The translations under genes and the position numbers were made by a program. A DNA stretch of 18,101 nt, from positions 1 through 18,101 of the forward strand of contig JBGATO010000075.1 of the NCBI GenBank assembly GCA_044229145.1. Direction: 5' to 3'. The stretch is from Candidatus Eiseniibacteriota bacterium (GTDB lineage: Bacteria > Eisenbacteria > RBG-16-71-46 > CAZEPH01). The notes beneath the pieces are model-generated. The model was not told the origin of the DNA and did no database searches. It saw nothing but the letters and a program-made list of their open reading frames with translations. The stretch's first letter is position 1, and the number at the start of each line of letters is the position of its first letter. Shown here piece by piece: positions 1-18,051 of this stretch.

Positions 1-417
1 CACGCGGCGTCGCTCGGTCAGGGTTTCCCCCATTGCCGAAGCCTCTCGACTGCTGCCTCCCGTAGGAGTCTGGGCCGTATCTCAGTCCCAGTGTGGCTGA
101 CCATCCTCTCAGACCAGCTACTGATCGTCGCCTTGGTGAGCCGTTACCTCACCAACAAGCTAATCAGACGCGGGACCATCCCAAAGTGGCAGGCCTTACG
201 GTCCCCACCTTTAATCGCCAAATGATGCCACCCGGCGATACCATGCGGTATTAGCACCCCGTTGGGAGTGTTATTCCACGCTTCGGGGCAGGTTTCCCAC
301 GCGTTACTCACCCGTTCGCCACTCGCTTGAGGAGCAAGCCCCTCTCACGCGTTCGACTTGCATGCCTAATCCACGCCGCCAACGTTCGTTCTGAGCCAGG
401 ATCAAACTCTCCGTATA
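1..417 (-). rRNA. rrs: 16S rRNA, 5' portion (runs off window start)
   Basis: Reverse complement of 391-410 is AGAGTTTGATCCTGGCTCAG (27F site). The EUB338 target GCTGCCTCCCGTAGGAGT is at ~52-69. The mature 5' end is approximate. Confidence 0.99.
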
Positions 418-538
418 AAAAACTAGAAACGCTTACCACTCTCACCAGACCACGACTCCGAAGAGTCAGGCCGGCAGGAGATGGCTTGCGTCATTGAATC
501 CGCAAGGCTCTCCCCCCACCTCACCTCCCACACACAGG

Positions 539-551
539 TTGTCAAAGAGCA
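539..551 (-). promoter_or_regulatory. rrn antitermination boxA
   Basis: Minus strand reads TGCTCTTTGACAA in the 16S leader, matching the boxA consensus. Confidence 0.85.
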
Positions 552-607
552 GTTGGGCGCGCCGTGTACCCAGGCAAGCGCCGAAGCCCCGTCAAGGGCG
601 AGAGGGG

Positions 608-637
608 AAAGTACTCTTTCGAGTGCTTCCGGGTCAA
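608..637 (-). promoter_or_regulatory. rRNA promoter P2 (sigma70-type)
   Basis: TTGACC-N18-TACTTT with an AT-rich upstream segment, upstream of boxA. Confidence 0.65.
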
Positions 638-771
638 CAAGAAATTCTCACTTGCGTGAACTTTTCTTGAGGCCTGAACCGGCCGCGCCTATCCGAGGCG
701 CTGCTTCAGGCGGAGCGGCTCGTCCGTGCCGTCCCCTCAACCGCGTCGCTCGGTGAGCGGCGCGGACGGGA

Positions 772-810
772 GTTATACGCGCTGACAGGGGGCCGCGCAA
801 GGACTTTTTT
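772..810 (-). promoter_or_regulatory. rRNA promoter P1 (sigma70-type) with A-tract UP-like element
   Basis: AAAAAA-gtcc-TTGCGC-N17-TATAAC on the minus strand. Confidence 0.65.
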
Positions 811-950
811 CGGCGATCGGCCGAAATTTCTGAATTCGATTCGATCGCAAGGGGTTAGCGGCGCATGTTTCGGGCGTCGAGTGGCGTCGGCGCCGGCGCG
901 TTTCGCCCACGAAACGCGCAGCCGCGATGAGCTTGTATTGTCATCTGTTG

Positions 951-2168
951 TTATGAAGCAGTTACCTTCCAGTACTTGCGGCCGACGCGCAGATGAAATG
1001 CAGGCGACAAAGACTGTTGAATCATCGGATCCGTGACGCGTTCGCCGTCGACGCTCACCGCACCGTCGCGAATCAGGCGGGACGCCTGCGCGTTCGAGGG
1101 AGCGCCGCCGCAGGCCACGACCAGATCGCGGAGGGACATGGTGCCCTCGCCGCGCGGCACGGTCACCTCGGGCGCGTCCTGTGGGATCTCACGGCGCGCG
1201 AACTGCCGCTGGAACTCCTCGGCTGCGGCGGCCGCGGCCTCCGGCGAGTGGTACATCCCCACGATCTCCGCGGCGACCCGGCGCTTCCACTCGACCGGGT
1301 TTACGCTGCGCGCGGCGATTTCCCGCTCGGCACGCGCGACCTCGTCCGGCGACACTCGGGTCGCAAGCGCCAAGTACGTCACGATCGCGGAGTCCGGGAT
1401 CGACATCACCTTGCCGAACATCTCGCGGGGCGATTCGGTGAGCCCGATGTAGTTGCCGAGGCTCTTGCTCATGCGTCGGACGCCGTCGACGCCGGGCAGA
1501 ATCGGCAGCGTCATCACCACCTGCGGCACCTGCCCGTACTCGGTCTGGAGGGCGCGGCCGATGAGCAGATTGAATTTCTGCTCGGTGGCGCCGAGTTCGA
1601 CGTCGGCCTCGATGGCGACCGAGTCGTAGCCCTGGGCCAACGGGTAGAAGAGTTCGTGGAGGCCGACCGGCTGGCCGGCGTTCAGGCGCTGCTCGAAGTC
1701 GTCGCGCTCCGTGATCCGCGCCACGGTGATCTTCGCCGACAACCGGATCACGTCGGCGAAGGTCATGCTGTCGAACCATTCGCCATTCCAGTGGATCTCG
1801 GCCTGTTCGACGTCGACCACACGGCCGAACTGCTCGAGATAGGTGCGGGCGTTGGCTTCGAGCTGCTCCTGCGTGAGCATCGGGCGTGTCTTGGAGACGC
1901 CGCTGGGGTCGCCGATGCGGCCGGTGAAGTCGCCGACGATGAGCACGACCTTGTGCCCCAGCTCTTGGAACTGCCGCAACTTGCGCAGGCCGACGGCGTG
2001 GCCGAGGTGGATGTCGGGCGCGGTCGGGTCGAAGCCTTGCTTGACGCGCAAGGGCGTGCCGGTGGCGGCGGCGCGCTCGAGCTTGGCGCGCAGTTCGCCG
2101 GCGGGCAGCACGTCCACGGTGCCGGCGGTCAGCAGGGCGAGTTGTTCGTCGACGGACAGACGGGACAC
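951..2168 (-). CDS. tyrS: Tyrosine--tRNA ligase
   Basis: GFDPTAPDIHLGH (HIGH), RMSKS (KMSKS), C-terminal S4-like domain. Start reassigned to GTG at 2168, after a GAGGA RBS and downstream of a promoter at 2212-2240. Confidence 0.97.
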   Translation of the reverse strand: MSRLSVDEQLALLTAGTVDVLPAGELRAKLERAAATGTPLRVKQGFDPTAPDIHLGHAVGLRKLRQFQELGHKVVLIVGDFTGRIGDPSGVSKTRPMLTQEQLEANARTYLEQFGRVVDVEQAEIHWNGEWFDSMTFADVIRLSAKITVARITERDDFEQRLNAGQPVGLHELFYPLAQGYDSVAIEADVELGATEQKFNLLIGRALQTEYGQVPQVVMTLPILPGVDGVRRMSKSLGNYIGLTESPREMFGKVMSIPDSAIVTYLALATRVSPDEVARAEREIAARSVNPVEWKRRVAAEIVGMYHSPEAAAAAAEEFQRQFARREIPQDAPEVTVPRGEGTMSLRDLVVACGGAPSNAQASRLIRDGAVSVDGERVTDPMIQQSLSPAFHLRVGRKYWKVTAS

Positions 2169-2211
2169 GGCGATCCTCACGGAAGACGGCGAGCGGCGAT
2201 GGAATCCGCCT

Positions 2212-2240
2212 ACCCTATCGAGACACGGCCGGGGCGGCAA
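2212..2240 (-). promoter_or_regulatory. tyrS promoter
   Basis: TTGCCG-N17-TAGGGT on the minus strand. Confidence 0.6.
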
Positions 2241-2256
2241 GAGTGGAGGCGCTCGC

Positions 2257-2286
2257 TTGACCGCGCGTGGCGCACCTCCGTAGAGT
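2257..2286 (+). promoter_or_regulatory. PBP1A promoter (probably leaderless transcript)
   Basis: TTGACC-N18-TAGAGT. An in-frame GTG lies 7 nt after the -10 box and there is no SD sequence. Confidence 0.6.
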
Positions 2287-2293
2287 CTCGCGC

Positions 2294-4504
2294 GTGATGA
2301 AATTCTGGCGCGTTGTCCTCATCCTCGTGGTCTTGCTCGTCTGCATGTCGGGCGGCGCCGTGCTGGGCGCGGCGAGTTGGCTCGGGCAAGACCTGCCTTC
2401 CACCGATGCCCTCGAGCGCATTACGCCGCCCGTCAAGACGCAGGTCTTCGACGTCCGCAACCAGATCATCGGCGAGTTCTACAAAGAGAACCGCAGTCTG
2501 GTGCCGCTGAAGCAGGTGCCGCGCAACCTCACGGCCGCGTTCATCTCGGTCGAGGACCGGCGCTTCTATCAGCACTGGGGCGTCGACGTCTTCCGCATCG
2601 GCAAGGCGGCGATCAAGGACATCATGTCGCGCTCGGCGGCCGAAGGCGGCGGCACCATCACACAGCAGCTGGCGCGCAATCTCTTTCTGACGCACGAAAA
2701 GACCTTCACGCGCAAGATGAAGGAGACGCTGCTCGCGATGGAGATCGAGCGGCGCTACACGAAGGACGAGATCCTGCAGATGTACGAGAACCAGATCTAC
2801 TTCGGATCTGGGGCGTACGGCGTGCAGGCGGCAGCGCGTGTGTTCTTCGACAAGGACGTGCAACAGCTGACGTTGCCGGAGTGCGCGTTGCTCGCCGGGC
2901 TGCCGCGCAATCCGGTGGGATACGATCCGCGGCGGCGGCCGGACGCGGCGTTGCGGCGGCGCAGCATCGTGTTGCGCGCGATGCTCGACACCGGCGCGAT
3001 CACGCGCACGCAGTACGCGCAGGCGCAGGCGTCCCCGCTCGGCGTCACGCCGGAGCGCCGCCCGCGCCAGGCGCCGTACTTCCTCGAGGCGGTGCGTCAG
3101 TATCTCGACGAGCGCTATGGGTCGAACCTGCTCTACGAAGGCGGCCTCAAGGTGTACACGACGCTCGACCTGCAGCTGCAGCATCTCGCCGAGGATGCGC
3201 TCGAGCGACAACTCTCCGCGCTCGAGGTGGCGAACGGCTACCGCATGCGCTACAGCGCACCGGCCGGGCGCCGCGCCGCGCCGGGCGAGCTCCCGCGCTA
3301 CCTCCAAGGCTCGATGCTGGCGATGGACCCGCGCTCGGGTGCCGTGCGTGTGATGATCGGGGGCCGCGACTACACCGACAGCCAATTCAACCGCGCATTG
3401 CAATCGCGCCGCCAGACCGGCTCGCTGTGGAAGCCGTTCGTGTACGTCGCCGCGATCGACGAGGGCATGCGGCCGAACGACACCATCGCCGACACGCCGA
3501 TCGAGTTCCCGGGCGCCGACGCCGGACAGACCTGGGCGCCGCAGAACTACGATCACAAGTTCCGCGGCACCATCACGCTGCGCTACGCACTCCAGCACTC
3601 GGTCAACATCCCGGCGGTACGGCTCGCCCAGAAGGAAGGCACCGACAAGGTCGCAGCCTACGCGCAGAAACTCGGCGTGAAGTCGCCCATCGTGCGCGAT
3701 CTGTCGATGGCGCTCGGCACCACCGAGGCCACACTGATCGAAATGGTTGGCGCGTACGCCGCGTTCGACAACGGTGGCGTGGCGGCGGCGCCCTACTACG
3801 TCCAGCGCGTCGTCGACCGCAACGGCAAGCCGCTCGAAACCACGCGCCCGCAACTGCGCGAGGCCCTGAGCGAAGGCACCGCGAGCACGCTCACGTCGAT
3901 GTTGCAAAGCGTGATCGATGGCGGCACCGGCTACCCGGCGCGCGCGGCGGGCTTCACCGCACCCGCCGCCGGCAAGACCGGCACCACGAGCGACTACACC
4001 GACGCGTGGTTCGTCGGCTACACCCCGACGCTGGTGGCCGGCGTGTGGGTCGGCTTCGACCGCAAGATGCAGTTGGGAGAAGGCATGACGGGCGGGCGCG
4101 CGGCGCTGCCGGCGTGGACGCAATTCATGCTCGGCGTGCAGGCGCTGCAGCCGTCGGGCGCCTTCCCGCAGGTGACCGAGGTGGTGACGCGGCTGGTGTG
4201 TCCGGTGAGCGGCGCGCTGGCGCGCACCGGGTGCCCTCCCCCGATCTCACAGACCTTCAACGCGGGCGAGGAGCCGTCGGAAGTGTGTAGCGCACACGGC
4301 GGCGAACCTGTCGCGCAGCCGTCGACGAGCGAGCCGGTGGTGCCGCCCGTGGGCGATGACGAACATGAGGCGCCGGTGCCGGACGCGGAAGCGGCCGCGC
4401 CTGGGGCGCCGGGCATCGTTCCCGCGGGGGCGCCTGCAACACGGGCCACACCCACACCACCGGCGACTCGGGCACCGGTCACCGCGCCCGCGAAAAAGCG
4501 CTAG
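2294..4504 (+). CDS. mrcA: Class A penicillin-binding protein (PBP1A family; transglycosylase/transpeptidase)
   Basis: N-terminal TM helix. GT51 motifs EDRRFYQHWGVD, GGGTITQQLARN and RKMKE. Transpeptidase motifs SLWK, SVN and KTGT. Cys/His and Pro/Ala-rich tail. Start is GTG 2294 or ATG 2297. Confidence 0.95.
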   Translation: MMKFWRVVLILVVLLVCMSGGAVLGAASWLGQDLPSTDALERITPPVKTQVFDVRNQIIGEFYKENRSLVPLKQVPRNLTAAFISVEDRRFYQHWGVDVFRIGKAAIKDIMSRSAAEGGGTITQQLARNLFLTHEKTFTRKMKETLLAMEIERRYTKDEILQMYENQIYFGSGAYGVQAAARVFFDKDVQQLTLPECALLAGLPRNPVGYDPRRRPDAALRRRSIVLRAMLDTGAITRTQYAQAQASPLGVTPERRPRQAPYFLEAVRQYLDERYGSNLLYEGGLKVYTTLDLQLQHLAEDALERQLSALEVANGYRMRYSAPAGRRAAPGELPRYLQGSMLAMDPRSGAVRVMIGGRDYTDSQFNRALQSRRQTGSLWKPFVYVAAIDEGMRPNDTIADTPIEFPGADAGQTWAPQNYDHKFRGTITLRYALQHSVNIPAVRLAQKEGTDKVAAYAQKLGVKSPIVRDLSMALGTTEATLIEMVGAYAAFDNGGVAAAPYYVQRVVDRNGKPLETTRPQLREALSEGTASTLTSMLQSVIDGGTGYPARAAGFTAPAAGKTGTTSDYTDAWFVGYTPTLVAGVWVGFDRKMQLGEGMTGGRAALPAWTQFMLGVQALQPSGAFPQVTEVVTRLVCPVSGALARTGCPPPISQTFNAGEEPSEVCSAHGGEPVAQPSTSEPVVPPVGDDEHEAPVPDAEAAAPGAPGIVPAGAPATRATPTPPATRAPVTAPAKKR

Positions 4505-4508
4505 GTCG

Positions 4509-5897
4509 CTACTCCGTCGCCGCGCGGCACAGCAGGGCGTCCGCCTCGGCGCTCCCCCACGCGGCCATGCCGCCGGTCGCCACGACCGCGAGGATGCGCG
4601 ACGCGAGCGGTGTCACCGCTGTCCCCACAGGCGCGAGATCGACCGCGGCGCTCACCGCCTCCTCACCGATCATTTGACGCTCCGCCGAGTTGGCGAAGAC
4701 GTGCGCCAAGACGTCGCCCTCGCGCACCGCATCGCCCACGCGCATGCGGAGGTCGAAGCCGGCGCCCGGATCGATGACGTCCTCGCGGCGCGCGCGTCCG
4801 GCACCCATCGCCACGCCGGCGAGGCCGAGCCGCAGCGAGTCGATGTCGCGCACTACGCCGTCGCGCGACGCGCGGACGGTGGCCTGATGCGCGGACATCC
4901 GCAGCCACGCAGGATCGTCCACCACCCCGAGGTCGCCGCCGTGTGCGTCGACCATCGCGCGGAACTTCGCCAGGCCGCTGCCGTCGGCGATGCGCGCGTG
5001 CATCGCGGCCGCCGCTTCCTCGAAGCCCGGCTGCGCGCCGGCGAGCATGAGCATCGCGGCACCGAGCACCACGGTTTCCTCGACGACGTCGGCTGGCCCG
5101 TCGCCGCGCAACACGGCGACCGACTCCGCGGCCTCGTTCGCATTGCCGATGGCGGCGCCGAGCGGCGCGTTCATGTCGGTGAGGATCGCCACCGCGCGGC
5201 GGCCGGCGGCCACTGTCGTCGCGACCAAGCGCTCGGCCAGCGCCTCCGCCTCGGCGCGCGTCTTGAGGAACGCGCCGCGCCCGCACTTGACGTCGTAGAC
5301 CAGCGCGCGCGGCCCGGCGGCGAGCTTCTTCGAGGCGATGGACGACACGATCAGCGGCAGCGATTCGACGAAGCCGGTGACGTCGCGCAGCTCGTACAGC
5401 ACGCTGTCGGCGGGCGCGAGGTCGGCGGACTGCCCGGCGATCGAACAGCCGACGCGCCGCAGGATGTCGACGAACTCGTCGTAGGTCAGGCGCGTGCGGT
5501 AGCCGCGAATCGCCTCGAGCTTGTCGAGCGTGCCGCCGGTGTGGCCGAGACCGCGGCCGCTGCACATCGGCACGGTGACGCCGTTGGAGGCCACCAGCGG
5601 CGCGAGCGGCAGCGAGATCTTGTCGCCGACGCCACCGGTCGAGTGCTTGTCCGCCGTCGGCACGCCGAGCGCGGAGAGGTCGAACATGCGGCCGCTGCCG
5701 GCGATCGCCGCGGTGAGCGTCGCCAACTCGCGCGGCGAGAGCCCGCGGTGGAACACGTTGGCGAGGAATGCCGCCGCCTGATAGTCGGGGATCTCGCGCG
5801 ACGCGATGCCGCGGATGAACCACTGGATGTGCGCGTCGGTCCATTCGGCACCGTCGCGCTTGGCGCGCAGGAGATCGACCGCGAGGAAGTCCGCCAT
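4509..5897 (-). CDS. pdp: Pyrimidine-nucleoside/thymidine phosphorylase
   Basis: AKRDG N-terminus, DKHSTGGVGDK, SGRGLGHTGGTLDKLE, SIASKK, DVKCGRGAF. Confidence 0.95.
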   Translation of the reverse strand: MADFLAVDLLRAKRDGAEWTDAHIQWFIRGIASREIPDYQAAAFLANVFHRGLSPRELATLTAAIAGSGRMFDLSALGVPTADKHSTGGVGDKISLPLAPLVASNGVTVPMCSGRGLGHTGGTLDKLEAIRGYRTRLTYDEFVDILRRVGCSIAGQSADLAPADSVLYELRDVTGFVESLPLIVSSIASKKLAAGPRALVYDVKCGRGAFLKTRAEAEALAERLVATTVAAGRRAVAILTDMNAPLGAAIGNANEAAESVAVLRGDGPADVVEETVVLGAAMLMLAGAQPGFEEAAAAMHARIADGSGLAKFRAMVDAHGGDLGVVDDPAWLRMSAHQATVRASRDGVVRDIDSLRLGLAGVAMGAGRARREDVIDPGAGFDLRMRVGDAVREGDVLAHVFANSAERQMIGEEAVSAAVDLAPVGTAVTPLASRILAVVATGGMAAWGSAEADALLCRAATE

Positions 5898-5900
5898 GCG

Positions 5901-7370
5901 CTACGCCGCGCCGCGCGCGCCCTTGCGCGCCGCGGCCGCGATCTTGACGCTGGCGCTGGTGCCGAGACGCGTCGCGCCGGCATCGACCATCGCCTGTGCG
6001 GCTTCGTAATCGCGGATGCCGCCGCTCGCCTTGACGCCGAGTTCCTCGCCCACCACCTCGCGCATGAGCGCGACGTCTTCCACCGTGGCGCCGGACTTCG
6101 CGAAGCCGGTCGATGTCTTGACGTAGTGCGCGCCGGCCGCCTTCGACAGGCGGCACGCGGTGATCTTCTCCTCACGCGTGAGCAGCGCGGTTTCGATGAT
6201 GACCTTCACGAGTATGCGCGAGCCGCACGCCTCGACGACGGTGCGGATGTCGCGCTCCACCGCCTTGAGGTCGCCCGACTTGAGCGCGCCGACGTTGATG
6301 ACCATGTCGACTTCGGTGGCGCCGTCGCGGATGGCACGCTGCGCCTCGTACGCCTTGACCTCCGGCAGCGACGCGCCGAGCGGGAAGCCGACCACCGTGC
6401 ACACGCCGACCCGCGAGCCGCGCAAGTTCGCCGCGGCGCGCTTCACCCACGTGCCGTTCACGCACACGGTGGCGAAGCTGTGCTGCACCGCCTCCTTGCA
6501 CAGCGTGTCGATGTCCTGCGCGCAGGCGTCCGGCTTGAGCACCGTGTGGTCGATCATGCTGGCGATGTCGGGTTCGGTCGGACACCAGCCGGGCGATCCG
6601 CCGATGCGGCAGGCGCCGCTGGCGATCATCGCGCGCACCGTCTTCGGGCGGCGCACGCCGCAGCCGACGCAGTTGTGGCACGGCGTGCAGGCGTCCAGCG
6701 TGCCGAAGTCCACCACCGGGCCGGGCGTCCGCGCGCCGGGCGCCGCCTTGATGGTGTTCGGCTCGTAGAGCGACAGCGGCACGCGGCCGCCGCCGGACAT
6801 CGTCGGAAGCGGCGCCGGACCGCTGGGCGCGTCGCCCAAGCGGCGAAGGACTTCGGCGGCGATGCGTTCGACCAGGGTGTCGTCGGAGGCGCTCATCGGG
6901 ACTGTCCGGTCTTCTTGCGCGCGGTACGGCTTGGTGGCAAAGGTGAAGGCGTGCGGCAGCAGTTCCTGCACGGTGAACGCCTGGTAGGACGAACCGCCGA
7001 GGTCGACGATGACGTCGGCGTTCGGGGCGAGTTCGGCGATGACTTGGCGGCACGCGCCGCACGGCCACGGCGTCGCCTTGCCGTCCGCGGTGACCGCGAC
7101 GCCGATCAGATGCGCCGCGCCGCCGGCCGCCACCGCGCGGGCGAGCGCGGTGCGCTCGGCGCACAGGCTCAGCGGGTAGGAGGCGTTCTCGATGTTGCCG
7201 CCGGTCCACATCTGGCCGGTGCGGCTGAACACCGCGGCGCCGACGCGATAGCGCGAGTACGGCGCGTAGGAATCCTTCGTGGCTTTGCGTGCGGCACGCA
7301 CCAGCGCCATGCACTCACCGTGGGTGAGGTGGCGCGACCCGGACTGTGCCGGGGCGTTCGACTTCGGCAT
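5901..7370 (-). CDS. deoC: Cytidine deaminase :: Cys-rich linker :: deoxyribose-phosphate aldolase fusion (cdd-deoC)
   Basis: N-terminal ~145 aa has YAPYS, NIENASY, CAERTA and PCGACRQ (tetrameric-type CDA). C-terminal ~220 aa has [28 protein letters not shown] and GVKASGGIR (DERA). There is no stop between them. An in-frame ATG at 6896 could be an internal start. Confidence 0.9.
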
Positions 7371-7463
7371 CGAAATGCGCCTCTTCCTTCCGGTCGTCGG
7401 GGGACGTCGGTCACCGCGCGCTGGGAGGCGCGGGGCGAGCGGAGGAGAGTAGCACGCGCGGTG

Positions 7464-8126
7464 CTACGGATGCCAGAGAGCCTTGACCGCGCCCCAGGAG
7501 GTGGCTTCGACCGGCGTGTAGCCGTCGCAGGTGTGGCTGCCGCCGCCGCCGACCGTGATGATCGGCGCGACGATGGTGGCCTGGTCGACGCGGCCGCTGG
7601 CATCGAGAGTCGCGCAGTAGTTGAGAGAGACGCAGCCCTGGCCTTGCGTGCAACCGTCGGTCTCGAACTGGATCTGCAAGATGGCGCCCGACGTGCAGCC
7701 GGTGCTGGTGGCGCTGTTGGTCCAGGCGACGTGGAATTGGCTGATGTTGTCGTCCACGACGATCGGCGCCGCGCTGCCGCGGTTGAGGTAGGTGCACGTC
7801 GAGCCGCTGCTCGTCTTGTACACGGTGCCGATGTGGGCGAAGCACGTGCCGGCAAAGTTGGTGGCCGGGTCCCAGCTGACGAAGATCTCGGCTCCGGCGA
7901 AGGTCAAGCCGCCGCTGCGGTAGAGCCGGACGTAGGCGTTGTTGACCGAGGCCGGGCTGGTGTCGGTGACCTGGCTGGTGGCGCTCCAGGACAAATAGGC
8001 GGCGGTGCCGGCGTTCGAGCCGGCGTGCGCGGACCCGGCGATGGCCAGCGCGAGGCAGACCAGCGCGGCGCACGCGTCGCGGAGGGCGCCCTGTCGCAGG
8101 CGCGTTGTCAGGTCAAGACGGGGCAT
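7464..8126 (-). CDS. Secreted hypothetical beta-rich protein with C-terminal TPVEATSWGAVKAL motif
   Basis: GAGGTGG RBS; signal peptide ending AHA; Ser/Thr/Cys-rich mature part; coding-like GC3 bias. Confidence 0.8.
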   Translation of the reverse strand: MPRLDLTTRLRQGALRDACAALVCLALAIAGSAHAGSNAGTAAYLSWSATSQVTDTSPASVNNAYVRLYRSGGLTFAGAEIFVSWDPATNFAGTCFAHIGTVYKTSSGSTCTYLNRGSAAPIVVDDNISQFHVAWTNSATSTGCTSGAILQIQFETDGCTQGQGCVSLNYCATLDASGRVDQATIVAPIITVGGGGSHTCDGYTPVEATSWGAVKALWHP

Positions 8127-8195
8127 GAAACGTCCACCTCTCGGCGGTGTGCAGGGCCGGGAGCAGGGGCCTCCGGCGCCGGGGTCTTCGCCCCG

Positions 8196-8204
8196 ACTCT
8201 ATCA
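8196..8204 (-). promoter_or_regulatory. Extended -10 promoter for the 220-aa secreted protein
   Basis: TG-A-TAGAGT on the minus strand; the same -10 hexamer as the PBP1A promoter. Confidence 0.45.
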
Positions 8205-8345
8205 GAATTCGTCCGGGCGGCGGGCGGGAGTTTGCGTCGTGGGTGGCGAATCGGGCGATTCCCGCCAACGCGGGAGCCGGTCCCGCGACAGAGGCGGTGT
8301 TCCGGGCCTCGGCCCTCGACCCCACCTCGTTCACGGAGACTTGCC

Positions 8346-11114
8346 ATGCGTACACGACGAGTGCCGCGAGCCGCCTTGCTGGCGGCCGCACTGGCGATCC
8401 TTCCCGGGGCGGCCGTACGGGCCGCCACGGAGACCGGCGATCCGGCTAACCGCTTGAGCTACTCACGGATCGCCTCCACCGCGACGGCGCCCGGCGACGT
8501 CGAGTCTGCCGCCACTGCCTTGCTCGACGGCAATGCCGGCACCGGCATCACGTTGGCCGCCGGTGAGAGCATCACGTTCCGCTTCATCGGCGCGCCGCGC
8601 TGGGTCAGCCACCTGCGCATCGCGGCCGGCGGTGCCGGCGTCCTCGTGCACGGTCTCGACGCCCAGGGGGCGCGTGTCGAGGTGGCGCGGATCGCCGCCG
8701 CGGCGAACGACGCCGCGCGCGACGTCGAGTGTCCGGCGAGCTACCTGACCGAGCTGACGTTCACCGCCGACGGCGGCGCCGTCCGGCTCGCCGACCTGTC
8801 GGCGCGCTTCGTGTCACGCGACCCCGACGACGCGCGGCTCGGCACCGGCGACGAAGGCACGCGCGAATACCACTACGACTACTGCAACGACTATCCCGGC
8901 TCCGCCGACGACCTCACCAACACCGACGACAACGCGCACGACCTGCGCGACAAGCTGCCCTCCGACTGGACCACCTACGGCCACGGCGACAGCAACGCGC
9001 ACGAGGAGCACCTCAAGAACTCTTCGCTCGGCGGCGTCAACAACGACCACATCGACAATGCCGACCTCTCGCTGTGGTGCGGTCACGGCGGCGTCGGCTG
9101 GGACGATCCGGCGACCGGCACCGACCTCGGCTCGATGATCTTCGGCAACACCACCGCCGACGACGACAACTGCGTGCCGAGCGACGCCGCCGACGCCTGG
9201 GGCGACTCCGACATGGAGTGGTTCGACGCCATCTCGTGCCAGACCCTGCGCGAAGTCGGCCAGGACTACTGGGCCGACGCGCTCGCCGGCCAGCACTTGA
9301 TCTGCGGCAGCGAGGATGACATCAACGCCAAGAACTACGGGACGAAGCTCGGCGACTACTACATCGACAACGGCGCCTTCGACAGCGCGAAGTCGATCAA
9401 GCAGGCGTGGTTCGACGCCATCGACGCGCACAACGGCGGGCACGACATCGCCGTGGTGATCGGCGAGAACTCGACCATGGGCAACGACTACCTCTGGGGC
9501 CAGGGATCGACCGCCTCCGACCCGACCGTCGACGGCACCTACTCGTGCTGGGAGTACGACGTCGGCTTGCTCGGTCCGCACCACCAGTCGGCGCCGGTGC
9601 CGGCGCTCACCGACCCGGTTACCCGCCGGGCCGAGCCGGGTCGTGGCTGGACGGTGACGTATGATCGCGCGCTCCTCGGGACGGCCACGCCGTCGCAGAT
9701 GCCGGTGTACAACGTGGTGCCGCGGCTGGTGGACTCGGTCTACGTGCGGATGCTGGCCAATTCGCTGTGCGGCATCGGCATGCCGGTGTGCGGCGGCGAC
9801 ATCGGCCCCGGCAATCCCGGCGACCTCAACCTGATTCAAGGCACCAAGGAGCTGCGCGTGCGCACGCAGTCCGGCGCGTGGCACTACGAGGACGTCGCCA
9901 AGTGGATGGCGTGGCGGAACACGCCGCCGCAGTTGCTGACTGGCGAGGCGGCGATTTCGCAGGCCGAGCAATTCCTGTCGCAGATGGGCCGCCGGCCGAC
10001 TGACGCCGTCGTCGAGGGCGTGCACTACCTGAAGCAGCACGCCTCGCTCAAGGGCGCGGGCGGGCAGACGACCGCCGACCTGCCGGAGTCGACGTTCGCG
10101 ATTGCCTCGCAGGTGCGCTACACGCGGCGCCTCGGGACCACGCCGGTGTTCGGTGCCGGCGCGAGCCTCACCGTGTCGCTGGGCGCGGGCGGCGGACTCG
10201 AGCGCATCTGGCACGGCGGCTGGCGCCAGGTGCAGCCGGGGCAGAACGTCACCGTGCTGCCGCTCGACTCCATGATCGTCGCGCTCACCTCGATGGGCAA
10301 CGCGTCGCTGGTGGACAACATCGCGCGCAAGGTCACCGGCATCCAGATCAACTCGAGCGAACTCGGCTACTACGAGCCGAGCTGCTACGACTCGCCGGCG
10401 AATCTGCGCCCGGTGTGGTGCCTGCACTGCACGCTGTTCGGCCCGGGCGGCGACAGCGACCCCGCCGACTTGCTCCTGTGGGCCGACGCGATGCCGGTCC
10501 GCGCGCACATCCAGTCCTCGGCCGGGCAGCCGGCGGGCGGTCCGGCGAGCATGATGCCGTCGGTGCCGGCCGGTTCGACCGTCAGCTTCACCGGAAGCGC
10601 CGATCACGGCGTGCCGCCGTACACCTTCACGTGGTTCCGCGAGAGCAGCGTGGTCGGCAACGGCCCGACGTACGCCGGCGTGTGCGACTTCCACAACTCG
10701 GGCGACGACGTCGACAGCACCGTGACGGTGCGGTTGCAGGTCAAGGACGCGCTCGGCGACATCGGCTACGCGCTCTACAGCCTCCGTTTGAACGCGGTGA
10801 CCGGCGTCGCCTCTCCGGAGTGGGCCGCGGCGCGCGGCTTGACGCTCGACGCGCCGAGCACCATGCGCGGAACCGCCGGCGTGCAGTTCACCGTGGGATC
10901 GCGCGGCGTGGAGGCGCCGGTCACGTTGCGCCTCGTCGACGCGGCGGGACGCGTGGTGCGCACGTTCGACGCCAGTGGCGCGCGCGGCGGGATCGCCAGC
11001 GTGTCGTGGGATGGCCGCGACACCGCGGGGCATCCGGTGGCAGCGGGCACCTACATGCTGCGCGCTGCGGCCGGCGAGGTCGTCACGGCTCGCAAGCTGA
11101 CGGTCGTGCGGTAG
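8346..11114 (+). CDS. Large secreted multidomain protein (922 aa): discoidin-like domain, DUF6345-like His-Cys domain, PepSY/YcdB-like region, PKD-like domain, FlgD-Ig/T9SS-like C-terminal domain
   Basis: True start ATG 8346 after GGAG; signal peptide MRTRR...AVRA. Motifs DNADLSLWCGHGG, WGDSDMEWFDAISCQTL, GSTVSFTGSADHGVPPYTFTW, and C-terminal LVDAAGRVVRT..WDGRDTAGHPVAAGTY..RKLTVVR. Confidence 0.85.
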   Translation: MRTRRVPRAALLAAALAILPGAAVRAATETGDPANRLSYSRIASTATAPGDVESAATALLDGNAGTGITLAAGESITFRFIGAPRWVSHLRIAAGGAGVLVHGLDAQGARVEVARIAAAANDAARDVECPASYLTELTFTADGGAVRLADLSARFVSRDPDDARLGTGDEGTREYHYDYCNDYPGSADDLTNTDDNAHDLRDKLPSDWTTYGHGDSNAHEEHLKNSSLGGVNNDHIDNADLSLWCGHGGVGWDDPATGTDLGSMIFGNTTADDDNCVPSDAADAWGDSDMEWFDAISCQTLREVGQDYWADALAGQHLICGSEDDINAKNYGTKLGDYYIDNGAFDSAKSIKQAWFDAIDAHNGGHDIAVVIGENSTMGNDYLWGQGSTASDPTVDGTYSCWEYDVGLLGPHHQSAPVPALTDPVTRRAEPGRGWTVTYDRALLGTATPSQMPVYNVVPRLVDSVYVRMLANSLCGIGMPVCGGDIGPGNPGDLNLIQGTKELRVRTQSGAWHYEDVAKWMAWRNTPPQLLTGEAAISQAEQFLSQMGRRPTDAVVEGVHYLKQHASLKGAGGQTTADLPESTFAIASQVRYTRRLGTTPVFGAGASLTVSLGAGGGLERIWHGGWRQVQPGQNVTVLPLDSMIVALTSMGNASLVDNIARKVTGIQINSSELGYYEPSCYDSPANLRPVWCLHCTLFGPGGDSDPADLLLWADAMPVRAHIQSSAGQPAGGPASMMPSVPAGSTVSFTGSADHGVPPYTFTWFRESSVVGNGPTYAGVCDFHNSGDDVDSTVTVRLQVKDALGDIGYALYSLRLNAVTGVASPEWAAARGLTLDAPSTMRGTAGVQFTVGSRGVEAPVTLRLVDAAGRVVRTFDASGARGGIASVSWDGRDTAGHPVAAGTYMLRAAAGEVVTARKLTVVR

Positions 11115-11150
11115 CGGTCTCGCGGATGGTTCGGCGTTCGTGAGACGGCG

Positions 11151-11181
11151 ACGGGGCGGAGGCACCTGGCCTCCGCCCCGT
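11151..11181. terminator. Hairpin between convergent genes (probable bidirectional terminator)
   Basis: Perfect 13-bp inverted repeat ACGGGGCGGAGGC / GCCTCCGCCCCGT with a 5-nt loop; weak T tract on the + strand. Confidence 0.7.
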
Positions 11182-11201
11182 TCGTTGTCGGTGCGACGTG
11201 C

Positions 11202-12371
11202 TCAGCCGCGCAGCGCGGAGAGGAAGCTCGTCCCGTTCCCGGTGCCGGTGACGCCGAACGCCTCGGCGATGGTGGCGCCGACGTCGGCGAAGCTGGCGCG
11301 GTCGCCGATCGGCGCGCCGCTGCCGCCCGGCGTCCAGGCGACCAGCGGGACGTACTCGCGCGTGTGGTCGGTCGAGACGTCCGTCGGGTCGTTGCCGTGG
11401 TCGCCGGTGATGAGCAGCAGGTCGCCCGGCCGCAGCTGCGCGGTGAGGGACGGCAGTGCCTCGTCGAAGTCGGCCATCGCCTGGACGAAGCCGTGCGAGT
11501 CGTTGCGGTGGCCCCACAGCGTGTCGAAGTCGACGAGGTTGATGAACATCAGGCCGTTGTCGAGCGCGGGCAGATGTTCGAGCGCGTTCTTCATCGCCTC
11601 GGCGTTCGACTCGCAGTGGAACGACTTGGTGAGGCCTTGATGCGCGAATAGGTCGTCGATCTTGCCGACCGCCCACACCTCGATGCCGTGGCCCTTCAGG
11701 ATGTCGAGGATCGTCGGGGCGATGGGCAGCACGCTGTAGTCGCGGCGCGCGTCGACGTCGCGCTTGTAGGCGCCGCTGGTGCCGGCGAAGGGTCGCGCGA
11801 TGACGCGGCCGACGCGGTGTTCGCCCTGCAGTTGCTCGCGGGCGATCTCGCAGATGCGGTACTGCTCGGCGAGCGGGATGACGTCCTGGTGCATGGCGAT
11901 CTGGAAGACGCTGTCGGCGCTGGTGTAGACGATCGGCGAGCCGGTGCGCACGTGCTCGTCGCCGAGCGTTTGGATGATCTCGGTGCCGCTGGCGGCGACG
12001 TTGCCGAGCGAGCCGCGGCCGATGGCATCGTGGAAGCGCTGCAGGACGTCCGGCGGGAAGCCGTTCGGGTAGGTCGGGAACGGCGTGTCGAGGACGACGC
12101 CGGCGAGCTCCCAGTGGCCGGTGACGCTGTCCTTGCCGGGCGAACGCTCGCCGAGGCGGCCGTAGACGCCGTCGAGCCGCGTGTGGGCGCCGGTGACGCC
12201 GGGCATGCGGGTGAGTTCGCCGAGGCCCAGGTTGGCGAGGTGCGGCAGCGCCATCGGGCCGTACTGCCGCGCGAGGTTGCCAAGGGTGTCGGAGCCGACG
12301 TCGCCGTAGGCTGCGGCGTCCGGCAGTTCGCCGACGCCGACGCCGTCACAGACGATGAGAACGATGCGCAT
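11202..12371 (-). CDS. deoB: Phosphopentomutase
   Basis: IVCDGVGVGELPDA, GKDSVTGHWE, YTSADSVFQIA, RVIARPF, DFDTLWGHRND, GDHGNDPT, DHTREYVP. Confidence 0.97.
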   Translation of the reverse strand: MRIVLIVCDGVGVGELPDAAAYGDVGSDTLGNLARQYGPMALPHLANLGLGELTRMPGVTGAHTRLDGVYGRLGERSPGKDSVTGHWELAGVVLDTPFPTYPNGFPPDVLQRFHDAIGRGSLGNVAASGTEIIQTLGDEHVRTGSPIVYTSADSVFQIAMHQDVIPLAEQYRICEIAREQLQGEHRVGRVIARPFAGTSGAYKRDVDARRDYSVLPIAPTILDILKGHGIEVWAVGKIDDLFAHQGLTKSFHCESNAEAMKNALEHLPALDNGLMFINLVDFDTLWGHRNDSHGFVQAMADFDEALPSLTAQLRPGDLLLITGDHGNDPTDVSTDHTREYVPLVAWTPGGSGAPIGDRASFADVGATIAEAFGVTGTGNGTSFLSALRG

Positions 12372-12435
12372 GGAGTGTGAAAACCTCTACCGTGGATGCG
12401 GCGGGCGCCGCGTGTCGAGCCAACGTGGTCGCCCG

Positions 12436-12447
12436 GACCTTAGCAAA
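12436..12447 (-). promoter_or_regulatory. Extended -10 promoter motif upstream of deoB
   Basis: TTTGCTAAGGTC (TG-n-TAAGGT); an identical copy lies upstream of alr. Confidence 0.55.
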
Positions 12448-12463
12448 CCGCAGCGGCGCGACG

Positions 12464-13067
12464 CTAGCGCGCCGTGGCGAGGGCGCGGGTCAGCGCGGCG
12501 GCTGGCGCATGGTCGCCGAGACTCTGCTCGGCGTGGACGTACGACGCGTCCGCCGCGCGCCACCACGACGGCGCCGCCGAGTTGCAGCCCATCGCCCTGG
12601 ACGCCGATCTGCGTGAAGCCGCGGCGCTTCATCTGGACGGCCTGCCAGATGCTGCGCGGGCCGAGGGTGCGCCACCATTGGCGCTTGAGGCCGGCGGCGG
12701 TGTAGGTGGCGCGCGTGGTGTCACTCAGCACCCATGCGCCAGCGGTGCGGAGCTGGAACTCGTCGTCGAACGCGCGGGCGAAGTGCGGCGCGCCATTGCC
12801 GATCACCACGACGCGCGCGCCGGTCTGCGTCCACTCGGCGATGTGCGGCCGGTACCCGGCCACGGCCTCACGGCAGGCGATTCAGCCGTAGTGGCGCAGG
12901 AACAACAACACCGCGGGACGATCGCGCCAGGCGTCGCCGAGGACGCGCGTCGCGCCGTCGGGATCCACGAGTTGCGCGGTGGCGAACGACGGCGGCACCG
13001 GAGCGCCGACGTCGACACGTGGCGTGGCGGCCGCCGCGACGGCGGCGAAGGCGAGTGCGCCGATCAT
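12464..13067 (-). CDS. Peroxiredoxin-like (AhpC/TSA, PRXL2/SelL/SelU-like) selenoprotein with UxxC motif; apparent frameshift at ~12542
   Basis: ATG 13067 overlaps the alr stop (ATGA). Reads LLFLRHYG-TGA-IACREAVAG in frame, followed by VVVIGNG and GDGLQLGGAVVV. The family-like end YVHAEQSLGDHAP...TAR* is in another frame and stops at 12464. Confidence 0.85.
12843..12863 (-). promoter_or_regulatory. Putative bacterial SECIS hairpin
   Basis: GTGGCCGGGTACCGGCCGCAC begins 18 nt after the in-frame UGA. Stem GGCCG/CGGCC with a G-initiated apical loop about 25 nt from the UGA. Confidence 0.65.
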
Positions 13068-14218
13068 AGATCCCCCACCAGCGTGGTGATCCGCATCGGC
13101 ACATGATTGCGCAGATAGACGCGCGGCACACGCTTGCCGATCGAGATCATCACGTCGTAGCTGAGCGTCTCCGAGTCGCGCGCGACGTCCTCGAGGCTGA
13201 GGCGCGCGTCGCCTTGTGAGCCGAACAGCACGACTTCGTCGCCGACTTCGACGCCATCGACATCGGTGACGTCGAGCATGCTCATGTCCATCGTCACGCG
13301 CCCGACGATCGGCGCCTTGACGCCGCGCACCAGCACGTGGCCGCGGTTCGACAACTTCACGCTCAAGCCGTGGCCGTAGCCGGCGGGAATCACGGCGATG
13401 CGCGACGGACGTTCGACGGTAAACGTGCGGTCGTAGGAGACGGTGCGACCAGGCTCCATGTCCTTGAGCAGGACGATGCGCGATTTGAGCGCCATCACCG
13501 GCCGCAAGTGTTCGGCGATGCCGATGCCGGTGTGCGTGTGGCCATACATCATGAGGCCGGGGCGCACCATGTCGAATCGCGCGTCGGGGACGCTGAGCAT
13601 GCCGGCGGTGTTGGCGGCGTGCGCGATCGGCAGCGCGATGCCGTCGGCGCGCAGCGTCCGAACGAGGGCGAGGAAGTGCGCGGTCTGCTGTTCGGCGAAC
13701 GCCGTGTGGCCGGGCGCGGCGTCGGGAAAGTGCGTGAAGATGCCTTCGATCTCGACCGCGGGCAAAGCGGCGGCAGCGCGCACCAGCGCCGCGGCGTCGG
13801 CTTCGTTCACGCCGCTGCGGCCCATGCCGGTGTCGACTTCGACGTGGACGATCGCGGTGACGCCGCGCGACGCGGCGCGCGCCGACAAGGCCTGCGCGTA
13901 GTCGAGCGACGACACCGTCGGCCGCAGCGTGTGCGCGAGGATGTCGTCGATTTCGGCGGGCAGCGTCGGGCTCAAGATCAGGATCGGCGCGTCGAGGCCG
14001 GCGCGGCGCAGCTCGATGCCCTCGTGCACGGTGGCGACACCGAGGAACTCGACGCCAGCGGCCGCGGCGACACGCGCGACTTGCGGTGCGCCGTGCCCAT
14101 AGCCGTCCGCCTTCACGACGAGACAGATGCGGCGGTCCGCGCCGATGCGGCGGCGGACTTCGGCGATGTTGTTGTCGAGAGCGTCGAGGTCGACTTCGAC
14201 CCAGGTCGGGAATTGCAC
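13064..14218 (-). CDS. alr: Alanine racemase
   Basis: WVEVDLDAL, VVKADGYGHG (PLP Lys), VDTGMGRSG, MVRPGL, VSYD (catalytic Tyr), GRVTMD; GGAG RBS before the GTG start. Confidence 0.96.
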   Translation of the reverse strand: MQFPTWVEVDLDALDNNIAEVRRRIGADRRICLVVKADGYGHGAPQVARVAAAAGVEFLGVATVHEGIELRRAGLDAPILILSPTLPAEIDDILAHTLRPTVSSLDYAQALSARAASRGVTAIVHVEVDTGMGRSGVNEADAAALVRAAAALPAVEIEGIFTHFPDAAPGHTAFAEQQTAHFLALVRTLRADGIALPIAHAANTAGMLSVPDARFDMVRPGLMMYGHTHTGIGIAEHLRPVMALKSRIVLLKDMEPGRTVSYDRTFTVERPSRIAVIPAGYGHGLSVKLSNRGHVLVRGVKAPIVGRVTMDMSMLDVTDVDGVEVGDEVVLFGSQGDARLSLEDVARDSETLSYDVMISIGKRVPRVYLRNHVPMRITTLVGDL

Positions 14219-14263
14219 GCAAGGCTCCAGGTGGCGTGCAGCGCCGTGCCGGCGCCGCGCGGC

Positions 14264-14275
14264 GACCTTAGCAAA
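14264..14275 (-). promoter_or_regulatory. Extended -10 promoter motif upstream of alr
   Basis: TTTGCTAAGGTC, identical to 12436-12447. Confidence 0.55.
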
Positions 14276-14307
14276 GCCGCGCGGGGGCGGCTACGACCGA
14301 TGCCGCG

Positions 14308-16741
14308 CTAGCGGCGCGCGGCGAGCGCCGGCTCGGGCGCCCACGCGCCGGCGGCCGGCCACGGGGCGGGCGACAACTGCGCGCCCAACATCGCCCCGTA
14401 CTCCTGCTCGAGGGTGAGTGCGGCGGTGGTCCAACTCGCGGCCTCGGCAGCGCGGCGCGCGCTGGCGCGCATCGCGTCGTGGCGTTCGCGGTTCGACAAC
14501 AGAGACCAGGCGGCTTGGGCGAAAGCGTGCGCGTCGCCGGCGGGACAAACGAGGCCGGTGTCGCCGTGGGCGACGGTTTCCGGCGGGCCGCCCCGTGCTC
14601 CACCGGCGGCCGCTGGCGAGCACTTCGAGGACGACGAGGCCGAAGGTGTCGGTGGTGCTCGAGGACAAGGAACAGCTCGCTGGAATGAGCGAAGCGGCGA
14701 GTTCGTCGCCACCGAAACCCTGGTGAACAGCACGTCGTCGCCGGCGTAGCGTTGATGAGCGCAAGGACGAAGAGCCGTCGCCGACCCTGCAGGTGATGAG
14801 ATCGGCCACGCAGCTCGCGCCGCGCCGAACAACGCGTCAGGCCTTCTATCAACCGACGCGGCCGACGTAGACGATCACCGCGGTCGCGGTGCAGGCCGCG
14901 CGAGCGCCAGAACGCGGCGGCGGCGAAGGCGTGGCGACTACCGCAGTATTGACGCCTTCAGGAACAACCCGAGCCGCGCGTCAGGCACTGATAGCGTAAT
15001 CGCACGCTGTTACAGCATGCCCGCGCTCGCCTCCTCCGCCGTACGGCGCATCTTCGATGAACTCGCCGGTGAGCACGCCGTTCCCGGCCAGCCGCGCCAT
15101 GCGGCGCTCGGTGCTGACCGAGCACCGAAAACCGCAGCAGGCCGCTGCGCGTGAAGGCGATGGTGCCGAGCGGGCCCGGCGTCGCCAGGTGCACGAGGTC
15201 GATGCGGCGGCGGCGCAGCAGTTCGAAGACGCCAGGCGCTGAGGACGCGCAGGACGTACTCTCCATGCAGCGCCAGCGTTTCGGTGAGCGCTGGCCGCCG
15301 TGTCCTTGCGATGCCGCGAGTCGTGCGCGAGCGCGGTGACCTCGAGCACGTCGAGGCCGGTCACGGCGAAGGCGCGCGAGAGGTTCACGTAGGTGATGCT
15401 GACGCCGTCCTGGTGATCGGCGGCGTCGAGGATGACGGCGACGCGCGGGCGGCGCGGCGGCGTGCCGTGCGCGTGCGCCGGCGTGGTGGGCGGTGCGCAC
15501 GCCTCGCAGCTGCGCGCACGCCTCGCCTTCCTGCGCGAGTTCGCGTGCCGCGAGCACCATGGGCGCCTCGAGCGCGACGTGCGCCAGCGCGCTGCCGACC
15601 GCGCGGCGCGTGGCGCCCAGGCGTCCGCCGCGCAGCGCCGCGCTGACGCGGGCGCGCAGGCGGTCGGCATGCGCGTGCGCGCCGAGCCACTGGTCCGCGT
15701 CGACGCGCTGCTGGTGTGCGCCGCCAGTTCGTTGACCGCGCCCACCGCGTCGATAAAGCGGACGCCGTGCACGTCGCCTTCAGCAGGTCGATGGCGGTGC
15801 GCGCGATGAGGCGGCTGTCGAACTGCGCGGCGACGACGTCCTCGGCGTAGCGCGCCAGCTCCTCGCCCCCGCATGCGGCGACGCCCGGCCACCGGCTCAC
15901 TTTCGAGACGCTCGCCGAGACGTTCGCGGGCAGCACGTGGCGGCGAGGAGCCGCAGCTCGTGCAGCCACGCGGCGTAGGCCGATGCGCGCGGAGATTTGG
16001 CGCGCGCGTGCGCTCCGGCGGCGCGGACGCGTCCGGCGCGCAGGTGCGCGAGGAATTCGTCGACGCTGGAAGCGGGTGGCGTCAGCGTGTAAACTCGCGC
16101 GACCTCCGCGAGCGTGTACGCGCCGGAGACGCCGATGCCGGGCACGCTCACCGGCGTCGGACGCTCGCCCTGCGCGGCGTCCGGCAGGCTGGCGAGCGCG
16201 AGCGCCGCGGCCGCATCGTTGGCAGCGGCGGAGCGCCAGCCGCTGCGCGTCTGCCACAGCGGGAACAGCGCGGCTTGACGGCGCGCGATCGCCGGCGCGC
16301 GAGCGGCGCGGCAAGCAGCGCCTCGAGCGGATCGGCGAGGACGGTGACCCAGCGGCGCGTTCCGGCGCGGGCGCGCAGCGCGGCGGCATCATCGCCGGCG
16401 GCGGTGAGGGCGCGGTGGTCGGCGTCGTCGTGGAGGCCGAGGACGAGGACGGTCCACTCGACGCCGCCGGTTGGATCGCGCACCACGACCTCTTCGCCCA
16501 GGATGACGTCGCCGTAGTGGCGCAGCGACAGCGCGCCGTCGAGCGTGCCGCGGTCGGTGATGGCGACGAAGCTCATCCCGCGGCGGCGGGCCGCCTCGTA
16601 GGCTTCTTCCGGGTCGACGACGGAGACCAGGCGCGGGGTACCAGGCGCGTCAGAGGCGGCGACGGGAGACGAATAGCGGGTGTGCAGGTGCAGATCGGCG
16701 CACGCTGCATCGCCGGCAGGGCCGGCCGCGGATCGCGTCAC
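14308..16741 (-). pseudogene. PHP-domain + GT4 glycosyltransferase fusion with multiple frameshifts (pseudogene or sequencing errors)
   Basis: Colinear motifs in different frames: ADLHLHTRYS, RRRGMSFVAITD, ILGEEV; ARVYTLTPPASSVDEFLAHLRAG; RVAVILD..DGVSIT; IDLVHLATPGPLG; VIVYVGRV; STTDTFGLVVLEVLASG; ETVAHGDTGLVC. AGGAG RBS before GTG 16741. Confidence 0.8.
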
Positions 16742-16832
16742 CCGGAGTCTCCTAAGAGGGTTCAGAGGCCAAACGGCCGCGCGATGTCCGGGCGGGCCGC
16801 CGGCGGCGGGGTCGGCCCCGTCGCAGCCGCTG

Positions 16833-16862
16833 GTGATACCAGGAGCCGGGCCGGGGTGTCAA
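16833..16862 (-). promoter_or_regulatory. Promoter for the PHP-GT4 gene
   Basis: TTGACA-N18 (ending TGG)-TATCAC on the minus strand. Confidence 0.55.
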
Positions 16863-16882
16863 CGCGAGGCGGTCCGGGCGGC

Positions 16883-16912
16883 TTGACGGCGGGGCGGATC
16901 GCTCACTAGGGT
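16883..16912 (+). promoter_or_regulatory. mazG promoter
   Basis: TTGACG-N18-TAGGGT; the same -10 hexamer as the tyrS promoter. Confidence 0.6.
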
Positions 16913-16961
16913 CGCCGGCTCGCGGGGCGCCCGGCCTCGCGCTGGCCCGGAGCCGCCGACC

Positions 16962-17768: not shown

Positions 17769-17787
17769 AGACCCAGCGCCCGCTCCA

Positions 17788-17928
17788 CACGAGTTCGGCG
17801 AGCCGCGTCAACGAGATGCGTCCCTGCGCGACGCCTTCGGAGTACGCGAGCGACAGCAGCATCTCGATGACGGGCGCGCCGTTGCCGCATTGGTCGAACG
17901 GCACGGCGCCGCGCTTCTTCTCCACCTC
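17788..17928 (-). pseudogene. Fragment resembling the C-terminal part of a cyclic amidohydrolase (dihydropyrimidinase/allantoinase/dihydroorotase)
   Basis: EKKRGAVPFDQCGNGAPVIEMLLSLAYSEGVAQGRISLTRLAELV resembles the family segment F..xPNG.PGIE..L.LLYSEGV..GRISL.R.VEL. Flanking sequence shows no similarity. Confidence 0.6.
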
Positions 17929-17985
17929 GATGCGGAGGGCTCGGCCTGGCAGCACCGGAAACGAGTGTGGGATGCACGGTGAAAC

Positions 17986-18015
17986 GGAGGGGCGGGGATC
18001 TCTCCCCGCCCCTCC
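17986..18015 (-). terminator. Intrinsic terminator-like hairpin
   Basis: Perfect 13-bp inverted repeat GGAGGGGCGGGGA / TCCCCGCCCCTCC with a 4-nt loop, followed by GTTTC on the minus strand, ~36 nt after a minus-strand stop. Confidence 0.7.
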
Positions 18016-18051
18016 TGTCGACTCAGCCTTGGCTGAGGTCTGTCGTGCCCG

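Follow-up and report, generated by a model that had tools for sequence, protein, structure and literature searches.

A putative encapsulation peptide on the deoxyribose-phosphate aldolase of a nucleoside operon in Candidatus Eiseniibacteriota

Gene and domain layout of the locus

We analysed an 18,101-nucleotide stretch of a Candidatus Eiseniibacteriota genome (assembly GCA_044229145.1, contig JBGATO010000075.1, positions 1 to 18,101), hereafter the window, in which a first-pass annotation had noticed a helix resembling the encapsulation peptides (EPs) of bacterial microcompartments (BMCs) on the deoxyribose-phosphate aldolase DeoC. As assembled, the cytidine deaminase gene (cdd) and the aldolase gene are continuous and in frame, so that a single open reading frame (ORF) covers both, with the parts listed in Table 1. 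Its deaminase portion was matched by Pfam PF00383/PF08211 at residues 15-116 and by NCBIfam TIGR01354 at residues 23-143, and its aldolase portion by PF01791 at residues 272-466 and TIGR00126 at residues 269-477. A pyrimidine-nucleoside phosphorylase gene (pdp) comes next, giving the order cdd-deoC-pdp, and the phosphopentomutase gene deoB lies ~4 kb away; DeoB aligned over residues 2-386 of its 389 and therefore has no extension.

Table 1. Position of the features of the window, with the evidence for each
Feature	Position	Strand	Residues or context	Evidence
Single 489-aa ORF as assembled	5901..7370	(-)	cytidine deaminase, tail, candidate EP, linker, Cys/pre-barrel module, DeoC	ORF list
Cytidine deaminase domain, tetrameric type	6942..7370	(-)	residues 1-143	TIGR01354, 129 bits (cut-off 113.65)
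Deaminase tail and junction	6897..6941	(-)	residues 144-158, ending in CGATGAGC	three-frame reading
Candidate EP helix	6834..6896	(-)	residues 159-179 (M159 to G179)	translation, AlphaFold2, hydrophobic moment, conservation
Pro/Gly-rich, poorly conserved linker	6696..6833	(-)	residues 180-225	gap-rich and variable in alignment, low pLDDT
Conserved pre-barrel module	6576..6695	(-)	residues 226-265	CxxCxxCxxC, P242, R246, G252, A253, R255
Deoxyribose-phosphate aldolase TIM barrel	5901..6575	(-)	residues 266-489	TIGR00126, 295.7 bits; AlphaFold2 pLDDT >90
Pyrimidine-nucleoside phosphorylase	4509..5897	(-)	begins 3 nt beyond the stop codon of deoC	TIGR02644, 486.8 bits; Pfam
Phosphopentomutase DeoB	11202..12371	(-)		NF003766, 488.9 bits; TIGR01696, 420.2 bits
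220-aa protein	7464..8126	(-)		
916-aa protein	8364..11114	(+)		

Translation of positions 6834-6899(-) yielded a proline followed by the 21-residue peptide, which makes the position that the first-pass annotation had given for the helix, 6834-6896(-), exact. The amphipathic helix and the Pro/Gly-rich linker that it had described were both recovered. An AlphaFold2 model from a 50-row alignment placed one helix at residues 161-179 (block pLDDT 78-83) between two disordered linkers at residues 141-160 and 181-196 (pLDDT <50); the deaminase part of this model is poor, since the alignment did not cover the deaminase. The top helical hydrophobic moment of the whole protein, 0.722, was found in the 15-residue window starting at V167 and ranks at the 99.8th percentile when set against 251,690 windows drawn from the coding-like frames of the genome; the signal of the helix exceeds chance. 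Across 50 homologues, conservation reaches at least 90% at each of the hydrophobic residues L166, I170 and V174. The stretch that follows the helix, from about residue 180 to 225, is Pro/Gly-rich, gap-rich and variable in both length and sequence.

Between this linker and the barrel lies a second conserved element, the pre-barrel module, in which C228 and C231 are at least 90% conserved, P242, G252, A253 and R255 are invariant and R246 is conserved among the same 50 homologues. The module (residues 226-265) had no Pfam match and was modelled with moderate confidence. It is missing from the DeoC of the shell-less genomes described below, which points to a Cys-containing module specific to compartment-associated aldolases. 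In some families the module is kept and its cysteines are missing.

Shell and cargo genes in the genome and in its relatives

The first-pass annotation had placed the microcompartment elsewhere in the genome and had reported no shell genes in the window, and both statements held. In a profile search of the genome (164 contigs totalling 4.23 Mb; completeness 89%) we found six PF00936 and three PF03319 domains, all of them on contigs C55 and C5 and none on the window's own contig. Contig C55 carries, in one direction, PduL, BMC-H, BMC-H, BMC-P, an acylating aldehyde dehydrogenase, a tandem BMC-T, BMC-P and BMC-P, that is, two BMC-H, one tandem BMC-T and three BMC-P genes within ~3.6 kb; no aldehyde-producing signature enzyme was found in this shell cluster. 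The dehydrogenase (NF011927, 639 bits) and PduL (PF06130, 200 bits) share an N-terminal amphipathic helix with a Pro/Ala-rich stretch behind it. One of the two RpiB genes of the genome stands alone on a third contig, C112, and encodes an N-terminal extension of ~60 residues composed of a helix and a Pro/Ala linker. The moments of these N-terminal helices fall at the 99.6th (dehydrogenase), 97.2nd (PduL) and 99.3rd (RpiB) percentiles.

Far from the main shell locus, on contig C5, the gene of a PduS-like flavoprotein (L012:7303-9179(+); Complex1_51K, 4Fe-4S dicluster and RnfC_N domains) directly precedes a second, tandem BMC-T, and the two are likely an electron-export pair. The window DeoC is the sole PF01791 match in the genome and is single-copy. 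When we searched the genome with an HMM of 23 DeoC helices, only the window DeoC was found (E 5e-7), the dehydrogenase helix coming tenth with an E value of 9, which indicates that the cargo helices share properties and not sequence. The cargo genes of such a compartment can thus occupy four or more separate sites in one genome, and locus-based catalogues would under-describe it. The second RpiB gene, on contig C125 (L015:214-1920(-)), is part of one 568-aa ORF in which an N-terminal RpiB is joined to serine hydroxymethyltransferase-like sequence.

We then compared the 40 nearest genomes of the same class and the window's own genome (41 in total). The first-pass annotation had considered that the genome and its relatives might lack shell genes; PF00936 was present in 30 of the 41 genomes. 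DeoC was recovered in 28 of these 30 and in 6 of the 11 shell-less genomes, and the two shell-bearing genomes with no DeoC match were G001 (70% complete) and G019 (94%). The frame upstream of the barrel was read in all 35 DeoC loci of 34 genomes, one of which has two copies. The same annotation had also considered that the helix might occur on DeoC regardless of microcompartments. Upstream of the barrel, 27 of the 28 shell-bearing genomes encode an EP-like helix, and none of the six DeoCs of shell-less genomes has one; as the genomes of the survey are kin, these counts are not independent events and no statistic is attached to them. Detection relied on a permissive short BLAST with the window peptide in 23 of the 27 and on inspection by eye in the other four (G024, G013, G007 and G027). 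The shell-bearing genome G005 has kept the Cys module and lacks the helix. Among the shell-less genomes, the DeoC of G003 starts 7 residues before the barrel, and that of G015 (locus L045) has a different 37-residue N-terminal extension, in which a short helix-like segment leads into a Pro-rich run. We count this extension as a possible exception; it may be vestigial or have no relation to the EP. Counted by family, the extended form is found in 11 shell-bearing families and is missing from four shell-less ones.

In six genomes of two families, the EP-bearing DeoC lies less than 1 kb from a BMC-H gene, after an EP-bearing RpiB and before an EP-bearing aldehyde dehydrogenase, an arrangement that is a textbook sugar-phosphate-utilisation (SPU) locus. 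The closest homologues of the window DeoC (87, 81 and 79% identity; 334-341 aa) carry the same peptide at their N-terminus. Two relatives of one family of the same class, L037 (G007) and L046 (G026), encode RpiB-linker-EP-DeoC fusions, so an internal EP does occur naturally. The RpiB of these two fusions has no N-terminal helix, and both SPU signature enzymes appear to share the single internal EP.

Outside the class, we examined 80 DeoC loci of many phyla and their neighbours within 6 kb. Of the 40 loci in which the DeoC alignment reached the N-terminal extension, 36 had RpiB and 15 had shell genes nearby, compared with one and none, respectively, of the 40 core-only loci, which are mostly from Bacillales. 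The architecture is abundant in public data, with 7976 of 8000 scored candidates matching it. Two proteins of 484-486 aa (P0053 and P0086) consist of an N-terminal EP, an extra domain of ~180 residues, the Cys module and the barrel, and are probably the 'Flav+DERA' cargo named in PMC12747264. A DeoC tree of 33 rows, from which the truncated rows of G002 and G026 were left out, had no support for 12 of its 30 inner branches and put the window DeoC on a polytomy with an unresolved backbone; it therefore identifies neither a donor nor a sister group, and the window DeoC cannot be placed beside the DeoCs of main loci.

Compartment type and proposed route

EPs have been defined as terminal stretches of 15-20 residues that form an amphipathic helix, are joined by a poorly conserved linker and are found only on compartment-associated homologues (PMC4594438). 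The predicted helix at residues 161-179 and its moment agree with this definition, as does the variable stretch at residues 180-225; the conserved module at 226-265 behind it lies outside the definition. The restriction to compartment-associated homologues is seen both in the class survey and in the counts across phyla. As to position, the peptide is internal in this assembly, and N-terminal in the closest homologues and in 19 of the 19 comparable relatives with separate cdd and deoC. The central inference made from the window is thus borne out: the helix fits the published definition and tracks the presence of shell genes, and residues 159-179 are very probably the EP of an SPU-type microcompartment aldolase. 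The peptide resembles the EPs of PduP, PduD, EutC and CcmN, which have ~18 residues, a predicted amphipathic helix and a poorly conserved linker and occur only on compartment-associated homologues, and differs from them in the conserved 40-residue Cys module before the barrel and in being internal (Aussignargues et al. 2015, PMC4594438). A complex prediction of residues 155-200 with three copies of BMC-H gives weak support to binding, with a score of 0.35 and 0.00 for the best control. Of 157 solved complexes, 116 reach this mark, as do 2 of 215 mismatches; at 0.60 or under, only 18 of those 157 and both mismatches do. The runs agreed in at least 61% of contacts, with a partner pLDDT of at least 50.

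SPU microcompartments with DeoC and RpiB were catalogued in 2014 (Axen et al., PMC4207490) and in 2021 (Sutter et al., PMC8217296), with a proposed role in the breakdown of deoxyribose-5-phosphate from DNA, which takes away much of the novelty that the first-pass annotation had attached to the locus. We read the SPU type from gene content. BMC-H (PF00936) and BMC-P (PF03319) stand in one main locus on C55, together with the acylating aldehyde dehydrogenase (639 bits) and PduL (200 bits). In common with the catalogued SPU type (PMC4207490, PMC8217296), the genome has a DeoC-type aldolase (pfam01791) and RpiB (pfam02502) as signature enzymes, both here with EP-like extensions, a dehydrogenase-PduL core with no alcohol dehydrogenase, a PduS-like protein, BMC-H, BMC-T and a triplet of BMC-P. 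It departs from the type in that DeoC and RpiB are both outside the shell locus; relatives from two further families have both genes inside it. A pfam01791 gene with an EP-like N-terminal extension distant from the shell locus has been described in some genomes, and satellite loci, by the 2021 definition, contain shell genes (both PMC8217296); the label 'satellite locus' that had been proposed for the window is accordingly better replaced by distal cargo gene.

The HO type shares with this genome a BMC-P triplet, an aldehyde dehydrogenase in the shell locus and a distal DeoC-family gene with an EP-like extension (PMC8217296), but PduL and an EP-bearing RpiB are present here, as in SPU. For the class II aldolase/BMC-P satellite of the HO type, our search of the genome returned two PF00596 genes, neither of them on a shell contig and neither with a clear EP.

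Within the class, cdd directly upstream and pdp directly downstream of deoC is a common arrangement in shell-bearing and shell-less genomes alike, so we regard cdd-deoC-pdp as an ordinary nucleoside-catabolic unit whose aldolase is tagged where a shell exists. DeoB converts deoxyribose-1-phosphate into deoxyribose-5-phosphate; the phosphorylase and this mutase act between cytidine deaminase and the aldolase, which do not work on consecutive intermediates. In the route that we propose, cytosolic cytidine deaminase, pyrimidine-nucleoside phosphorylase and phosphopentomutase, all three encoded in the window, would convert pyrimidine deoxynucleosides into deoxyribose-5-phosphate. The amphipathic helix, on its flexible linker, would bind the inner face of the shell and/or co-aggregate with other cargo helices, and in this way would load the sole DeoC of the genome into a shell made from the C55 genes. 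There, the EP-bearing acylating aldehyde dehydrogenase would trap acetaldehyde as acetyl-CoA, PduL would recycle CoA, and the PduS-like flavoprotein and BMC-T of C5 would probably carry electrons out. Since DeoC is the only deoxyribose-phosphate aldolase in the genome, the compartment would handle the entire breakdown of deoxyribose.

For archaeal SPU compartments, a cytosolic route from nucleosides to deoxyribose-5-phosphate was reconstructed in a 2025 preprint (PMC12747264). A link of the cdd-deoC-pdp operon to a microcompartment was not found in the text of the papers searched, though the supplementary locus diagrams of the catalogue (PMC8217296) may show dispersed loci of this kind; nor did these papers include a paper joining 'encapsulation peptide', 'microcompartment' and 'cytidine deaminase'. 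Our comparison adds gene-order support to the published substrate proposal, as across one class the operon aldolase is tagged in genomes with shells and untagged in those without, and the nucleoside origin of the compartment substrate becomes testable within one operon.

The deaminase junction and alternative readings

In 20 of the 195 DeoC loci examined, cdd lies immediately upstream of deoC on the same strand, and only the pair in the window forms one frame without a stop. In G002, of the same family, the cdd TGA precedes the deoC GTG start by 8 nt, and in L051, from a Candidatus Eisenbacteria MAG, the stop of cdd is the TGA within an ATGA stop/start overlap inside CGATGAGC. The same CGATGAGC is found at the window junction, but there the TGA is out of frame and cdd reads through in the frame of the ATG. 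When the tail in the window is read in the other frame, its last ~14 codons encode a basic tail ending at the TGA, like the basic tails of G002 and L051. From the shared CGATGAGC and basic tail it follows that two coupled genes and one fused gene differ here by one net change of frame in the last ~16 codons. The fusion reflects a recent change of this single kind or else an error of the assembly, and the attached deaminase may be an assembly slip.

We looked for this junction in Logan contigs and in other assemblies. Among the Logan contigs listed from the likely source sample, pieces stop at 6838 and resume at 6946, with positions 6930-6945 unbridged, and no indel was seen in 6840-6960 among the Logan rows; no RNA sample was among those listed. 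The contig of the same-genus genome G001 ends 12 nt past the pdp start, before the junction. A degenerate helix pattern matched no stretch of the metagenome contigs, and a protein scan of them returned only relatives of 49-64% identity, with no closer copy of the junction. Taken together, we consider it somewhat doubtful that the deaminase fusion is real.

A functional fusion, in which deaminase, EP and aldolase form one polypeptide loaded through its internal EP, would bring a nucleoside-level enzyme into the lumen of the SPU compartment and let the pathway start at nucleosides. If true, a deaminase would for the first time be counted among such cargo, and the protein would show in nature that a mid-chain EP can load two unrelated enzymes at once. 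The continuous ORF argues for it, as does third-position GC, which by a count by hand is slightly higher in the fused frame (12/16) than in the frame of the ATGA stop (9/14); moreover, by analogy with the RpiB-linker-EP-DeoC relatives, an internal EP would be no barrier to loading. Second domains on the aldolase are also known from other SPU cargo, namely RpiB-aldolase in Marinimicrobia (PMC4207490) and Flav+DERA in Hodarchaeales (PMC12747264), although a cytidine deaminase partner was seen neither among the database matches listed nor in the literature searched. Against it stand the single fused pair among 20, the use of CGATGAGC as a stop/start overlap in L051 and the relative-like basic tail that ends at the out-of-frame TGA. 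The closest DeoC homologues, at 334-341 aa, start at the EP, and PF01791 was found on none of the 120 long deaminase matches listed of 1579. Furthermore, the mutase has no extension and the C-terminal tail of the phosphorylase aligns only in same-genus and same-family genomes; as these two enzymes act between the fused ones and have no shell-linked tag, a deaminase in the shell would be a passenger with no metabolic gain. We therefore judge a functional fusion unlikely. Of what the first-pass annotation had proposed for it, the internal, in-frame position of the peptide behind cytidine deaminase stands for the sequence as assembled, whereas the fusion is confined to one of 20 cdd-deoC pairs and absent from the closest homologues, and the extension of the organelle upstream to nucleosides is not supported, in view of the intermediate enzymes.

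The helix itself could be explained in other ways. One would make it a mere inter-domain linker of a bifunctional deaminase-aldolase that channels substrate in the cytosol, in line with the presence here of two domains of one pathway in one ORF. We give this very little credence: the helix predates the fusion, as both the closest homologues and all 19 comparable relatives with separate genes have it at the N-terminus, the steps of the two enzymes do not follow directly on one another, and no recurrent deaminase-helix-aldolase fusions without shells appeared among the 195 loci or the deaminase matches listed. An oligomerisation or regulatory extension of DeoC unrelated to microcompartments is slightly less improbable and still highly so. 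Amphipathic helices are common, the short-peptide HMM did not link the DeoC helix to those of the other cargo and the complex prediction was weak (0.35). The distribution of the helix (27 of 28 shell-bearing relatives, none of six shell-less DeoCs), the same type of DeoC inside the shell loci of other families and the association of the extension with RpiB and shell genes across phyla all argue for the encapsulation peptide instead.

Among the database proteins, P0156 (600 aa) joins a cytidine deaminase to a full pyrimidine-nucleoside phosphorylase, and most of the other long deaminase matches listed are fused to YbeY (PF02130). In the window, the gene just upstream of the deaminase, also on the minus strand, encodes the 220-aa protein; the start of this protein resembles a signal peptide, and neither Pfam nor NCBIfam matched it. 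The 916-aa protein consists of DUF6345 and a C-terminal FlgD Ig-like domain, and is embedded in an artefactual open frame of 2252 aa, as is typical of this genome of 69% GC.
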